Shown here piece after piece: positions 9,694-13,559 of a DNA stretch of 13,784 nucleotides. The stretch covers positions 1 to 13,784 of IMG/VR virus record IMGVR_UViG_2548876856_000011. The stretch is one strand, 5' to 3'. A model generated the notes under the pieces. The model saw nothing but the letters and a program-made list of their open reading frames with translations, was not told the DNA's origin and did not search any database. Positions within the stretch are counted from its first letter, which is position 1; each line of letters begins with the position of its first letter. A program made the position numbers and the translations under genes. Source of the stretch: a virus (lineage: Duplodnaviria; Heunggongvirae; Uroviricota; Caudoviricetes).

Positions 9694-9897
9694 ATGAGCA
9701 ACTTATTTTTAACCGAAGATGAATTGCTAATATTAACGGGCTGCAAATATGCAAGCCACCAGCGAAAATGGTTAACGGAAAACGGGCTTCCGTTCTATAC
9801 CAATCGTAGTGGCAAACCGATTGTCAGCCGGGATCTATTTACCTGCAATAAAACTTTACCACCACGCGAGGTAGAGCCGAATTTTGGTGCAATCTAA
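9694..9897 (+). CDS. putative excisionase (Xis), position-based
   Basis: 67-aa ORF immediately upstream of int, stop overlapping the int start (TAATG); weak RBS. Confidence 0.55.
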   Translation: MSNLFLTEDELLILTGCKYASHQRKWLTENGLPFYTNRSGKPIVSRDLFTCNKTLPPREVEPNFGAI

Positions 9898-10922
9898 TGG
9901 GAAGACGAAGGAAAAATCCTGAACACGAAAAACTACCTCCAAATGTATACCCAAATAAATATAGTTATGTATGGAAACCAACATCCAGAGAATCTGTCAC
10001 ACTAACCGCCATCAAGGATGGTTTAGCTGCTTTATGGAAAAAGTATGAGGAAACTGTAAATAATCGCGATCGTGCAATGACATTCGGTCGCTTGTGGGAA
10101 AAATTCCTCGCCAGCGCCTATTACAGTGACCTCAGTCCAAGAACACAAAAAGATTATCTGCAACATCAAAAAAAGTTGCTTGCCGTATTCGGTAAGGTGC
10201 CGGCAGATTCCATAAAACCAGAACACATCCGTCGATACATGGACAAGAGAGGGGAACAGAGTAAAACGCAAGCCAACCATGAAAAAAGCAGTATGTCCCG
10301 CGTTTACAGTTGGGGGTATGAGCGAGGGTACGTGAAGGCTAACCCATGTGCAGGTGTAAGTAAATTCAAGGCCAAAAACCGCGAACGATATGTAACCGAC
10401 AAAGAATACCAGGCAGTATTAAGCGTTGCACCTCTTCCTGTTTTTATCGCAATGGAAATTGCCTATCTGTGTGCAGCGAGGGTTTCCGATGTGTTATCGC
10501 TGAAATGGGAGCAGATTGGAAACGACGGAATCTTTATCCAGCAAGGGAAAACAGGAAAAAAACAGATAAAAGCATGGAGTCCACGATTACAGGCGGCGAT
10601 CGAAAAAGCAAAACAGTTACCAACATCCGCCTATGTAATCAGTAATCAATACGGCAACCGATATATGTACAAAGGCTTTAACGAAATGTGGGTAGAAGCA
10701 AGAAATCGCGCAGGCAAAATTTCAGGTATTTTAACCGACTTCACCTTTCATGATCTGAAGGCGAAAGGAATTTCAGACTATGAAGGAAGCAGTCGGGATA
10801 AGCAACTTTTCTCTGGTCACAAAACCGAGGGGCAAGTGCTAATCTATGACAGGAAGGTTAAAGTTTCACCGACACTTGATGTCCCGTTACCTGAAAATAT
10901 TCCAAGAAAATATTCCAAGTAA
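9897..10922 (+). CDS. int: lambda-family tyrosine integrase
   Basis: N-terminus MGRRRKNPEHEKLPPNVY parallels lambda Int MGRRRSHERRDLPPNLY; 341 aa; ends 52 bp from the 3' end of tRNA-Ser. Confidence 0.95.
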   Translation: MGRRRKNPEHEKLPPNVYPNKYSYVWKPTSRESVTLTAIKDGLAALWKKYEETVNNRDRAMTFGRLWEKFLASAYYSDLSPRTQKDYLQHQKKLLAVFGKVPADSIKPEHIRRYMDKRGEQSKTQANHEKSSMSRVYSWGYERGYVKANPCAGVSKFKAKNRERYVTDKEYQAVLSVAPLPVFIAMEIAYLCAARVSDVLSLKWEQIGNDGIFIQQGKTGKKQIKAWSPRLQAAIEKAKQLPTSAYVISNQYGNRYMYKGFNEMWVEARNRAGKISGILTDFTFHDLKAKGISDYEGSSRDKQLFSGHKTEGQVLIYDRKVKVSPTLDVPLPENIPRKYSK

Positions 10923-10974
10923 TTCCAAGTGTGATTTTTGTCACTGACTTAATGATGTATAAGTGATTGAATTT

Positions 10975-11064
10975 TGGCGGAGAGAGGGGGATTTGAACCC
11001 CCGGTGGAGTTGCCCCCACTCCGGTTTTCGAGACCGGTCCGTTCAGCCGCTCCGGCATCTCTCC
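10975..11064 (-). tRNA. serU: tRNA-Ser (anticodon CGA), prophage attachment site at its 3' end
   Basis: 90-nt minus-strand sequence GGAGAGATGCCGGAGCGGCTGAACGGACCGGTCTCGAAAACCGG...CTCTCTCCGCCA with long variable arm and anticodon CGA; sits next to mtfA as in E. coli. Confidence 0.95.
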
Positions 11065-11157
11065 GTTCAGATGGTTGCCATGATGCCAGGAAATTTGGCA
11101 TTTTAACAGTCCCTGTCCGTGCAATTTTGTTCAAGTGACGAGTTTGCGAGCAAAACG

Positions 11158-11955
11158 ATGATTAAGTGGCCCTGGAAAGTACAAGAATCAGCACATCAAA
11201 CTGCCCTTCCCTGGCAGGAAGCACTATCGATCCCCCTTTTAACGTGTCTGACGGAACAGGAACAAAGCAAATTAGTCACTCTTGCCGAACGTTTTTTACA
11301 GCAAAAGCGGCTTGTTCCTTTACAGGGCTTTGAACTGGATTCATTAAGAAGCTGCCGGATAGCACTTCTATTTTGCCTACCCGTTCTGGAGTTAGGACTG
11401 GAATGGCTGGATGGTTTTCATGAAGTCTTAATTTATCCTGCGCCATTTGTGGTCGATGATGAATGGGAAGACGATATCGGTCTGGTGCATAACCAACGTA
11501 TTGTTCAGTCAGGTCAGAGCTGGCAGCAAGGGCCTATCGTTTTGAACTGGTTGGATATACAAGATTCTTTTGATGCTTCTGGTTTTAACCTGATTATTCA
11601 TGAAGTCGCTCATAAGCTGGACACCCGTAACGGCGATCGCGCCAGCGGAGTTCCCTTTATTCCGTTGCGTGAGGTTGCTGGCTGGGAACACGATCTTCAT
11701 GCTGCAATGAACAACATTCAGGAAGAAATCGAATTGGTTGGCGAGAATGCGGCGAGCATTGATGCTTATGCTGCCAGTGATCCTGCTGAATGTTTTGCCG
11801 TACTTTCTGAATATTTCTTTAGCGCCCCAGAACTTTTTGCTCCTCGTTTCCCTTCATTGTGGCAACGTTTCTGCCAATTTTATCAACAAGATCCTTTGCA
11901 GAGACTGCATCACGCTAATGATACAGACTCGTTTTCGGCGACGAATGTTCATTAA
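11158..11955 (+). CDS. mtfA: Mlc titration factor A (MtfA), HExxH zinc peptidase
   Basis: Starts [26 protein letters not shown]...; HEVAH motif present; 265 aa. The ORF-track form starts at an upstream in-frame ATG (11119). Confidence 0.95.
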
Positions 11956-12008
11956 TTAACAACTTTGCAGATTAATTAACCAATTGAAATGACTTATGAA
12001 ATTTAGTG

Positions 12009-12037
12009 TTGACAGACAAGGTACCGCTAAGTAATAT
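12009..12037 (+). promoter_or_regulatory. asnT promoter
   Basis: -35 TTGACA (12009..12014), 17-bp spacer, -10 TAATAT (12032..12037), then GC-rich discriminator GCGCCCCG, about 19 nt before the tRNA 5' end. Confidence 0.5.
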
Positions 12038-12055
12038 GCGCCCCGTTCACACGAT

Positions 12056-12131
12056 TCCTCTGTAGTTCAGTCGGTAGAACGGCGGACTGTTAATCCGTAT
12101 GTCACTGGTTCGAGTCCAGTCAGAGGAGCCA
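12056..12131 (+). tRNA. asnT: tRNA-Asn (anticodon GUU)
   Basis: 76-nt sequence TCCTCTGTAGTTCAGTCGGTAGAACGGCGGACTGTTAATCCGTATGTCACTGGTTCGAGTCCAGTCAGAGGAGCCA; the copy adjacent to mtfA is asnT. Confidence 0.95.
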
Positions 12132-12296
12132 GATTTTAGTTTTGAGACATCTCTATGTGTCTCAAGATAGTTAAAAAACAAGAACTTATCTTTACCCGGT
12201 TGTCTCGCGAGAGGCTGTCGGGTTTCTTGACATCCATAGTTTTTAGGGGCTTAATCGGGGGCCTCACGGTTCGGTGAGCAAATGGAGCCCCCCGCT

Positions 12297-13559
12297 ATGG
12301 CATTAACAGACACCACGATCCGCAAGATCAAACCCTCCGACAAACCTTTCAAAATGACAGACAGTTCCGGACTGTACCTGTTGATCAAACCCAATGGCTC
12401 AAAACTCTGGTACATGAAGTACCGTATCGACGGCAAAGAGAAAAAGTTAGCTTTCGGCCCCTACCCGGAGATATCCCTGTTGCAGGCTCGCCGCCTGCGT
12501 GAAACGGCACGCAATAACATTCATGCAGGCGTCGATCCTGCTGCGGTGAAGCAGACGGAGAAGCATAAGAGGAAAAATGGGCAGACATTCAGCCAGATCG
12601 CCGCTAACTGGCATGGCGAGCACAAACGCTGGTCTGAGCATTACGCGAAAACCGTTATGCGCAGGCTGGAGATGTATGTTTTCCCGGATATCGGGGATCG
12701 CCTTATCGAGGAGATCGAAACAGAGGATTTGCTGGTCACGCTGCGCAAGGTGGAGAGCAAAGGTTTTCTGGAGATCACCGCCCGGCTGAAAAACTACGTC
12801 ACCGATATCATGCACTACGCGATGAAAAAGCAGTTGCTCAAAGTGAACCCAGCGCTGTATCTGGACGGTGAGTTTGCCGCGCCAGAAACGAATCACTATC
12901 CGGCCCTGTCGCTGGACAAGCTGCCTGAGCTTTTAACCCGCACGGATAGCTACTGTGGCAGGTTGCTGACGAAATATGCCCTCAAGTTATCGCTGATGTT
13001 TTTCGTGCGCTCCAGTGAGCTACGCTTTGCCCGCTGGAGTGAAATCGACTGGCAGCAAAAACTGTGGGTGATCCCGGAAGAGCGCGAGCAGATCGAAAAT
13101 GTGCGCTTCTCTTACCGGGGTTCGAAAATGAAAATCCAGCATATCGTGCCGCTGTCGGATCAGGCGATTACGATACTGAAACAGATCGAGGCCCTCTCCG
13201 GGCATCTGGTGTTTATTTTTCCCGGCGAGTACGACCAGGACAAGTGTATGAGCGACAACACTGTGAATAAGGCGCTACGCGTGATGGGCTATGACACCAA
13301 AAAAGACGTCTGTGGGCATGGCTTCCGGGCAATGGCGTGTAGTGCGCTAAGTGAGTCGGGGTTGTGGAGCAAAGAAGCCATTGAAAAGCAGATGAGCCAC
13401 CAGGAAAGAAACAGCGTCCGCGCTGCGTATATTCACAAGGCTGAATATCTGGAGGAACGGATCGCGATGATGCAGTGGTGGTCAGATTATCTTGATGTGA
13501 ATAGTGACGGGTATATTTCAGCTTACCAGTATGCCCACCACCAGAGAAAAGCATCGTAG
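12297..13559 (+). CDS. P4-family tyrosine integrase of a second, asnT-integrated island
   Basis: MALTDTTIRKIKPSDKPFKMTDSSGLYLLIKPNGSKLWYMKYRIDGKEKKLAFGPYPEISL... is typical of P4-like integrases; C-terminal ...HGFRAMA...SHQERNSVRAAYIHKAEY holds the catalytic tyrosine. Begins about 165 bp after the tRNA-Asn 3' end. Start may be the upstream ATG at 12282 (5 extra codons, GGTGAG RBS). Confidence 0.9.
   Translation: MALTDTTIRKIKPSDKPFKMTDSSGLYLLIKPNGSKLWYMKYRIDGKEKKLAFGPYPEISLLQARRLRETARNNIHAGVDPAAVKQTEKHKRKNGQTFSQIAANWHGEHKRWSEHYAKTVMRRLEMYVFPDIGDRLIEEIETEDLLVTLRKVESKGFLEITARLKNYVTDIMHYAMKKQLLKVNPALYLDGEFAAPETNHYPALSLDKLPELLTRTDSYCGRLLTKYALKLSLMFFVRSSELRFARWSEIDWQQKLWVIPEEREQIENVRFSYRGSKMKIQHIVPLSDQAITILKQIEALSGHLVFIFPGEYDQDKCMSDNTVNKALRVMGYDTKKDVCGHGFRAMACSALSESGLWSKEAIEKQMSHQERNSVRAAYIHKAEYLEERIAMMQWWSDYLDVNSDGYISAYQYAHHQRKAS

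Follow-up and report, generated by a model that had tools for sequence, protein, structure and literature searches.

The window analyzed here, a stretch of 13,784 nt that is 100% identical to the chromosome of Escherichia coli ESBL15 by sequence comparison, is with high confidence (probability about 0.93) the junction of two unrelated integrative elements lodged in the neighbouring tRNA genes serU and asnT. The element at serU is a 50,095-bp (50.1-kb) lambdoid prophage of the Sp14/CP-933U type, and the element at asnT is a 15.2-kb genomic island at the 3' end of the tRNA gene, inserted by way of a P4-family integrase; both are products of site-specific recombination by a tyrosine recombinase. 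The sole host protein gene that separates them is mtfA, and the host segment left between the two elements, serU-mtfA-asnT, measures 1.16 kb. A first-pass annotation had called this arrangement, placing a lambda-family integrase next to serU, a P4-family integrase next to asnT and one host gene in between, and its feature coordinates are all correct to the base by ARAGORN, Rfam and Pfam. The result is mostly one of calibration: a call made from the sequence alone proved accurate. The features of the window are the following.

1-10974, no strand assigned: right-hand 11 kb of the serU prophage (ESBL15 annotation, Pfam), the remainder lying left of the window
6469-6520: DicF RNA (Rfam)
9694-10922, plus strand: xis-int module, on the serU side
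9694-9897, plus strand: excisionase-like gene (Pfam DUF4224, E 2.8e-16; PHROG phrog_1266 'excisionase', E 1.7e-21), immediately 5' of int
9897-10922, plus strand: tyrosine integrase of the serU prophage, 341 aa (Pfam PF00589, Phage_integrase; PF22022, Phage_int_M; PF14659, SAM-like)
10893-10929, plus strand: two exact tandem 13-bp units GAAAATATTCCAA and a degenerate third AATTCCAAG, overlapping the 3' end of int; candidate arm-type Int-binding sites
10975-11036, no strand assigned: int-proximal 62-bp att repeat, serU positions 29-90, from anticodon stem to CCA; its 3' part phage-derived
10975-11064, minus strand: serU, tRNA-Ser(CGA) (ARAGORN, Rfam), intact and chimeric
11158-11955, plus strand: mtfA, DgsA/Mlc anti-repressor, peptidase M90 (ORF 11119/11158-11955; Pfam Peptidase_M90, NCBIfam, K-12 order)
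12009-12037, plus strand: sigma-70-like promoter, TTGACA-17-TAATAT, a consensus match only, 18 bp 5' of asnT in host DNA
12056-12131, plus strand: asnT, tRNA-Asn(GUU) (ARAGORN, GTT; Rfam; K-12 order)
12115-12131, no strand assigned: 17-bp direct repeat TCCAGTCAGAGGAGCCA, the terminal asnT bases and tRNA-proximal att
12297-13559, plus strand: P4-family integrase of the asnT island, 420 aa (ORF open from 12282; Pfam Arm-DNA-bind_3, Phage_int_M and Phage_integrase)
13577-13617, no strand assigned: perfect palindrome of 20+20 nt, lying between int and the island gene that converges on it
13724-13784, minus strand: 3' end of a 134-aa hypothetical gene with which the island cargo begins; the PAAR-Rhs gene lies directly upstream of it

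The backbone of K-12 MG1655, in which both sites are empty, runs yodB-serU-mtfA-asnT-yeeJ, a classic pair of integration hotspots in E. coli, and the names serU and asnT are fixed here because the backbone order is the same. The intervening gene matches Peptidase_M90 and, over its full length, the NCBIfam equivalog NF011939 (541.9 bits against a cut-off of 400), which identifies it as the single host gene mtfA. The 3' end of each tRNA points to its own integrase, with 52 bp between the stop of the serU-side int and serU, and 165 bp between asnT and the start of the other int. Both elements present the signature of tRNA-integrated DNA, namely direct repeats of the tRNA 3' ends together with empty sites in K-12 and in strain A8. 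The absence of distal repeats, named in the first-pass annotation as the result that would refute it, is not what the sequence shows.

The attachment site at serU provides insight into how the tRNA gene was rebuilt. A leftward search for a second copy of the serU 3' end, proposed in the first-pass annotation, recovers a 62-bp copy (60/62 identical) 50,095 bp away, adjoining yodB (L002 29518-29579). This distal copy matches the yodB-side flank of K-12 base by base, and past ...GAGACCG it passes into prophage DNA. The window has two marker bases, G at 11006 and C at 11017, where empty-site strains and the displaced distal copy have A and T. In the tRNA, positions 48 and 59 are G/C in the two prophage-bearing strains compared and A/T in the two empty-site strains; since both positions pair in the variable arm, the change is compensatory. 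Judged by these bases, serU is an intact chimera, host DNA in its 5' part and phage DNA in its 3' part. The prophage attP contains the final 62 nt of tRNA-Ser(CGA), and strands were exchanged in the region of the anticodon stem-loop, at a crossover point that can be placed only presumptively. The serU now in place is therefore a functional chimera that owes its 3' part to the phage, while the original 3' part was displaced by 50 kb to its present place beside yodB. With the compensatory base pair in its variable arm, the chimeric gene marks naturally and cleanly which part of a tRNA gene a phage replaces on integration.

The portion of the prophage within the window holds early, replication and immunity genes, DicF/dicB, an exonuclease, xis and int (ESBL15 annotation), with Pfam matches to lambda P, DnaT-like, YdaT, HTH_3 and Rv2179c-like exonuclease families. 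The prophage as a whole carries a complete set of structural, lysis and replication genes (ESBL15 annotation), the T3SS effector genes nleB2, nleC (truncated), nleH (frameshifted) and nleF, and a Septu defence system (PADLOC). Its integrase scores 43.8 bits with PF00589 (cut-off 27.1) and aligns end to end with lambda Int by BLASTP (23% identity, E 9e-19), sharing an N-terminal MGRRR...LPPN.Y; alongside this homology, no Pfam arm-binding domain model is matched at E<=0.001. By its sequence the enzyme is lambda-Int-like and is described more precisely as an integrase of the ST64B/Sp14 type. That assignment is in agreement with 58.7% identity to the Int of Salmonella phage ST64B over 96% of its length, and with the tRNA-Ser(CGA) 3' segment present in the ST64B attP; the Int of Stenotrophomonas phage BUCT708 is 62% identical. 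Alignment with lambda Int locates the catalytic R, K, H, H and Y, the tyrosine within LIYDR, and a lysine at the Arg-II position (HDLKAKG). Because the ST64B and BUCT708 integrases share the same lysine, it reads as a family trait and no lesion, and in the alignment the serU integrase retains every conserved catalytic position of its own family. Two GenBank records labelled as phage, with an Int 99.7% identical, were considered as proof of a free phage and rejected, as they represent a partial genome with host tRNA-Ser, mtfA and tRNA-Asn.

The 3' end of this int coincides with the tandem 13-bp repeat. Among E. coli the repeat occurs in 1, 2 or 3 units, with all three copy numbers found within O157:H7, and the 2-copy allele is the majority (about 91%). 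A 10-mer of the repeat is also present at the far end of the prophage, and the annotated lambda Int-binding site 'int 4' likewise overlaps the 3' end of int. The tandem ATATTCCAAG repeats and their copies at the other prophage end are likely, by analogy, to be arm-type sites. Since raw counts of ATATTCCAAG show no excess over the expectation from shuffles, this reading draws on the clustering at both att junctions and on the parallels with lambda and ST64B. PGAP tags the serU integrase as 'frameshifted', and only the last codons after the catalytic tyrosine are affected. Compared across alleles, the tag reflects the majority 2-copy allele of the 13-bp repeat and concerns the C-terminal tail; for this integrase family it is probably an annotation artefact, which, if so, would touch about 1,000 complete genomes. 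Every gain or loss of a unit has two simultaneous effects, on how many candidate arm-type sites there are and on the frame in which the Int C-terminal tail is read. It is conceivable, though we consider it unlikely, that copy number tunes the frequency of integration and excision, as a slipped-strand 'dial' on prophage stability; no description of such a mechanism was found in the part of the literature on this locus that was consulted.

On the other side of the host segment, the asnT integrase matches PF13356 (E 1.1e-25), PF22022 (E 5e-23) and PF00589 (E 9.2e-18) and shares 50.7% identity with the Int of phage P4 across 97% of its length (E 2e-136), so that its assignment to the P4 family holds. 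A rightward search for the asnT 3' repeat and for cargo, also proposed at the outset, finds a second copy of TCCAGTCAGAGGAGCCA 15,163 bp away, 314 bp before yeeJ, after which the K-12 downstream sequence resumes. A 24-nt asnT 3' probe returned no second copy; the repeat is only 17 bp long and was recovered with a 16-mer, which gave two matches against none expected in shuffles. Insertion of the island duplicated these terminal 17 bp of asnT. The cargo lies beyond the right edge of the window, as the first-pass annotation had supposed and as the ESBL15 annotation confirms, and consists of a T6SS PAAR-Rhs effector module with an adjacent DUF2169 adaptor (Tox-PAAR-like, E 8e-32; RHS_repeat, E 7.8e-58; DUF6531; DUF2169, E 9.6e-66), regulatory and antitoxin-like genes, a second integrase-like gene and a decayed Lamassu system (Pfam, PADLOC). 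The 134-aa gene next to the PAAR-Rhs gene may encode its immunity protein; it has no match in Pfam or PADLOC, and PADLOC gave none for the DUF5677 protein of the island. The palindrome downstream of int is probably a bidirectional terminator.

The annotation had also pointed to asnT as a known pathogenicity-island site in E. coli. An island is indeed there, but it is a small Rhs/T6SS-effector island and not the classical yersiniabactin one. No yersiniabactin (HPI) genes accompany the integrase, the next genes being hypothetical, PAAR-Rhs, DUF2169 and others. The Yersinia HPI was rejected as an identity for the island: the integrase is only 52% identical to its counterpart, and a megablast of the island gave no matches in HPI strains. 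The island is rare (10/5,426 genomes), and a literature search for an Rhs/T6SS island at asnT returned nothing relevant.

Could the two elements, with serU-mtfA-asnT between them, be a single composite mobile region that moves as one block? The whole 4.2-kb junction is common to seven genomes at at least 99.7% identity, and the two sites tend to be occupied together: about 47% of complete E. coli genomes have both junctions interrupted, where independence would predict about 30%. The clonal structure of the species explains this association, for instance through B2 strains with PAI-serU and HPI. All 5,426 genomes contain the serU-mtfA-asnT segment, as does K-12, where both sites are empty, and the two elements differ in their att repeats and in the family of their integrases. 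In strain A8 the island occupies asnT and the serU site is empty, and in strain PNUSAE008512 the integrase of the serU prophage is present and the asnT site is empty; since such single-element strains exist, the two elements are independent, as first supposed, and a composite region is effectively refuted and very improbable. Still less probable, and already refuted, is the reading that puts the distal repeats down to chance and the nearness of the integrases to tRNA genes down to accident. The shortness of the asnT repeat is the one point that favours it, but both repeats exist, they lie exactly where the K-12 flank resumes, the shuffles predict no 16-mer match and the longer repeat agrees over almost all of its 62 bp.

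A reading that deserves more weight takes both elements as fixed, decayed remnants unable to excise or transfer, so that the locus would be a fossil in this strain. It gains from the 'frameshifted' flag on the serU int, from prophage pseudogenes (ydfD, a TerB-family gene, nleC, nleH and a second integrase fragment) and, in the island, from a DUF4297 gene with a frameshift and from an LmuB in which roughly the first 56 positions of the PADLOC model are missing. In O157 Sakai, moreover, the excisionase of Sp14 was considered unlikely to function, and little circular Sp14 DNA was seen (PMC2669165). However, the att repeats and integrase ORFs of the two elements are all undamaged, the catalytic positions of the serU Int are kept, its frameshift corresponds to the common repeat allele confined to the tail, and the structural, lysis and replication genes are complete. 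Sp14 circles were nevertheless detected experimentally, after mitomycin C (PMC2669165), and presence of the island varies among otherwise similar backbones. We regard the fossil reading as a real possibility, though not the one we favour. Two integrative elements at neighbouring tRNA genes is the account we retain, in which the present-day mobility of the prophage can only be presumed, given the 'frameshifted' tag on int and the several pseudogenes.

The arrangement has close parallels. In the uropathogenic strains CFT073 and 536, PAI-serU and PAI-asnT (HPI) take both sites and leave only serU-mtfA-asnT between them, as here (PMC7545054). The same 17-bp asnT end adjoins a P4-family integrase in CFT073, whereas its serU element is a 22-kb island (TcpC) and not a prophage, and its asnT element is the 32-kb yersiniabactin HPI, the source of the 52% figure above. 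Occupation of both sites at once is frequent and has been described before, and the locus offers nothing new in kind; about half of the E. coli sequenced show this arrangement, which makes it an ordinary one. What ESBL15 adds is a serU prophage with T3SS effector genes and Septu, and a rare Rhs/T6SS-effector island in place of the usual yersiniabactin island at asnT.

Structural comparison with Sp14 of O157:H7 Sakai, which lies between yodB and tRNA-Ser(cga) (PMC8190617), and with CP-933U of EDL933 reveals the same site and the same orientation as the present prophage. The early-region gene set is shared, including an Exo VIII-type exonuclease and the xis-int module, and the int-serU junction of O157:H7 strains is 98.1% identical to that of the window, a figure that refers to the junction. 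Unlike Sp14, which measures about 43.7 kb against about 50.1 kb here, the ESBL15 prophage has the nleB2, nleC, nleH and nleF locus and Septu. Sp10 was also considered as the serU prophage of Sakai and rejected, as it occupies the attachment site of Rac and the prophage at serU is Sp14.

Within the int/attP region, to which the comparison is limited, ST64B shares the HDLKAKG box, and its attP has the tRNA-Ser segment, ending in ...GAGACCG, just downstream of int, as here. Three tandem short repeats stand between its int stop and the core; the host is another one, and the repeat is TTTTCTCA versus ATATTCCAAG here. A small 'excisionase' gene (sb29) lies upstream of int in ST64B, placed like the DUF4224 gene here (a likeness of position), and BUCT708 has a DUF4224 gene in the same place. 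The asnT integrase has the domain architecture of phage P4 Int and of P4-type tRNA islands, which also present the tRNA followed by int in the same orientation and a short 3'-terminal tRNA direct repeat. The annotation of the island shows no P4 replication or helper-exploitation genes, and P4 itself integrates at leuX.

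Window positions 9600–13784 are 100% identical to the E. coli ESBL15 chromosome (NZ_CP041678.1) and to four other genomes, and ARAGORN, Rfam, Pfam and NCBIfam returned every feature of the serU-mtfA-asnT junction where the first-pass annotation had placed it.

9694–9897: DUF4224 gene, matching PHROG excisionase families
9897–10922: ORF of the tyrosine integrase of the serU prophage, 341 aa
10975–11064, minus strand: serU, tRNA-Ser(CGA) (ARAGORN and Rfam)
ORF ending at 11955: mtfA (Pfam Peptidase_M90 and NCBIfam MtfA equivalog)
12056–12131, plus strand: asnT, tRNA-Asn(GTT) (ARAGORN and Rfam)
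12282/12297–13559: ORF of the P4-type integrase of the asnT island (Arm-DNA-bind_3, Phage_int_M and Phage_integrase)
13577–13617: perfect 20+20-nt palindrome with a 1-nt spacer
13724–13784: 3' end of the gene for a 134-aa hypothetical protein, island cargo

MtfA scores 541.9 bits on its NCBIfam equivalog, whose cut-off is 400. K-12 MG1655 carries yodB, serU, mtfA, asnT and yeeJ in this order with no insert, which fixes the names serU and asnT and supplies the empty-site reference. Restored by excision, the serU site would join serU to the yodB flank, and the asnT site would join asnT to the yeeJ-side sequence AATTCTAAAAATTCGC.

The annotated ESBL15 flanks identify the DNA left of serU as lambdoid prophage throughout, until yodB. 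Inside the window this prophage encodes xis, int, an Exo VIII-type exonuclease, dicB/DicF, cI/cro-like regulators and replication genes; leftwards beyond it follow Q, lysis, terminase, head and tail genes, and last, at the far (left) prophage end, an effector locus of nleB2, truncated nleC, frameshifted nleH and nleF (25652–28806 of L002, an ESBL15 chromosome locus). A probe of the serU 3' end has one second copy, at L002 29555–29578, on the opposite strand between nleF and yodB. The native yodB-side flank precedes this copy in the K-12 alignment; its match to serU (60/62) begins at the CCA end and extends over 62 bp as far as the anticodon stem, beyond which prophage DNA follows. The two serU copies lie 50,095 bp apart, as computed from the record coordinates. 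On the other side, the terminal 17 bp of asnT, TCCAGTCAGAGGAGCCA, have a single second copy, 15,163 bp rightwards, where K-12 asnT-downstream sequence resumes, 314 bp before yeeJ; by chance, no match to the asnT 3' end is expected. The first-pass annotation had made its reading depend on distal repeats of the two tRNA 3' ends, one to the left for serU and one to the right for asnT, and both exist. Its claim that the two elements are independent is borne out by strains that carry only one of them: A8 has the asnT integrase and Rhs genes of the window with an empty serU site, and PNUSAE008512 has the serU integrase of the window with an empty asnT site and a yeeJ-like gene directly next to it. 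The serU-mtfA-asnT core itself is present in 5,426 of 5,426 genomes.

Comparison of the serU copies reveals the mark left by integration. At positions 48 and 59 of the tRNA (window 11017 and 11006, respectively), K-12, strain A8 with its empty site and the displaced distal copy all have A and U; the window's intact serU has G and C, as does that of one other prophage-bearing strain. The two bases form a pair within the variable arm, so the change from A-U to G-C is compensatory. These marker bases show the resident serU to be a chimera with a phage-derived 3' part, and strand exchange would have fallen between tRNA positions 29 and 47, in the anticodon stem-loop region. So clean a chimeric-tRNA marker at serU is mildly new.

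The two integrases belong to different families, as the first-pass annotation had said. That of the serU prophage can be aligned with lambda Int over the full length (23% identity, E 9e-19) and shares its N-terminal MGRRR..LPPN.Y; that of the asnT island is 50.7% identical to P4 Int. Close relatives of the serU integrase are those of Salmonella phage ST64B (58.7%), Klebsiella phages and Stenotrophomonas phage BUCT708 (61.7%). A lysine replaces its second catalytic arginine (HDLKAKG, window 10740–10760 region); the ST64B and BUCT708 integrases have the same lysine, so the substitution is typical of the family and no sign of damage. ST64B also has a similar tRNA-Ser 3' segment of its own, which ends ...GAGACCG and is situated some 100 bp downstream from int. 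Upstream of int it has a small gene that is annotated as an excisionase.

PGAP labels the serU integrase of the window "frameshifted", and the reason is a 13-bp tandem unit, GAAAATATTCCAA, which occurs twice at the int 3' end (10893–10918) and whose copy number changes the reading frame of the integrase C-terminus. The repeat region (10893–10929) was compared with two further E. coli loci, L011 and L012. Strain 150 has one unit and an "intact" integrase of 344 aa, and an O157:H7 strain has three units and an "intact" integrase of 359 aa. Within the 1,153 junction-bearing genomes, two copies are the majority allele (about 1,054, called "frameshifted" by PGAP), with one copy in about 42–49 and three in about 24–28; these counts are approximate, being taken from BLAST identity bands. 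All three alleles are found inside O157:H7. Since the repeat lies after the catalytic tyrosine (LIYDRK) and the integrase tail varies across the family, the PGAP label is probably an annotation artefact.

The repeat may have a second role. Across the approximately 59 kb examined, the 10-mer ATATTCCAAG has exactly three occurrences: the tandem units account for two, 56–78 bp from the core, and the third lies about 100 bp inside the opposite prophage end, where an inverted copy with one mismatch is also present, about 40 bp from the core at that end. Lambda, too, has an annotated Int-binding site overlapping the 3' end of int, and the corresponding position in ST64B is occupied by three TTTTCTCA repeats in tandem. 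This placement, together with the two parallels, makes the ATATTCCAAG copies candidate arm-type Int-binding sites. A repeat of variable copy number overlapping both the 3' end of int and these candidate sites is again mildly new.

The cargo of the asnT island lies beyond the right edge of the window, as the first-pass annotation had said. Besides the 134-aa protein it comprises a 1,536-aa PAAR-like/RHS protein, a DUF2169 T6SS adaptor, HTH_35 and HigA-like genes, an Integrase_1-family gene and, outside the window at 34002–36878 of the ESBL15 locus L001, a decayed Lamassu system (LmuB, E 1.2e-212, short of the profile by about 56 positions at the N-terminus, and an adjoining frameshifted DUF4297 gene). 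The Yersinia high-pathogenicity island (HPI) was considered as the identity of this island and rejected: the HPI integrase of CFT073 is only 52% identical, the spacer DNA from asnT to int bears no relation to HPI, and the cargo is of the Rhs/T6SS type. The island is rare, with at least 80% of its length present in 10 of 5,426 genomes; its rarity and content are mildly new. The AT-rich palindrome between the stop of the island integrase and the convergent 134-aa gene is probably a bidirectional terminator. The island of strain A8 has additional genes (7189–8623 of its locus, L005), an orphan RHS core/C-terminal fragment and a hypothetical gene, flanked on one side by an immunity-like gene and on the other by the complete PAAR-Rhs gene; this arrangement indicates Rhs toxin-tip displacement in this island family.

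Double occupancy of serU and asnT is a well-documented, very frequent and already known arrangement in E. coli. K-12 junction probes were run on 5,426 complete E. coli genomes. The serU junction is K-12-like in 2,336, the asnT junction in 2,581 and both in 2,019, so by inclusion-exclusion both are interrupted in about 2,528 (47%). As deletions and divergent flanks are also scored as interruptions, this figure gives an upper limit for occupancy. An HPI-type integrase directly follows mtfA-asnT in 2,447 genomes, a calibration indicating that interruption is largely occupation. A review (PMC7545054) places PAI-serU and PAI-asnT (HPI) in both UPEC 536 and CFT073, with about 1.6 kb between them, and the layout was confirmed in the CFT073 record itself. 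Observation and interpretation in the first-pass annotation were both correct, and nothing mechanistically unusual was found at the locus.

The int-serU junction occurs in 1,153 of the 5,426 genomes, and that of the window is 98.1% identical to those of O157:H7 strains. The prophage between yodB and tRNA-Ser(cga) in O157:H7 Sakai is Sp14 (PMC8190617), whose integrase was judged intact and of which small amounts of the circular form were detected after mitomycin C (PMC2669165); serU prophages with nleB, nleF and nleH are known from O145:H28 (PMC7067040). The T3SS effector locus described here resides in a human rectal ESBL isolate. The record ON470580.1 ("Escherichia phage vB_EcoM-606R7", locus L006) continues past the integrase into host tRNA-Ser, mtfA and tRNA-Asn; this "phage genome" takes in chromosomal flank and was ruled out as evidence of a free phage.

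Three further features lie mid-prophage, at or near the left edge of the window.

Window 1–60 with L001 8466–10461: Septu defence system, just left of the window (PtuA, E 1.9e-165; PtuB, E 1.1e-83)
473–993, minus strand: second integrase gene, degraded (frameshifted, with an internal stop)
1099–1941, minus strand: DUF5677 gene

The N-terminus of PtuA contains the window start. The degraded integrase and the DUF5677 gene adjoin the Septu genes, which suggests a nested insertion or a moron cassette. The DicF small RNA (6469–6520, plus strand; Rfam RF00039, 76.7 bits) lies upstream of dicB, and the two form a Qin-like cell-division-inhibition module.
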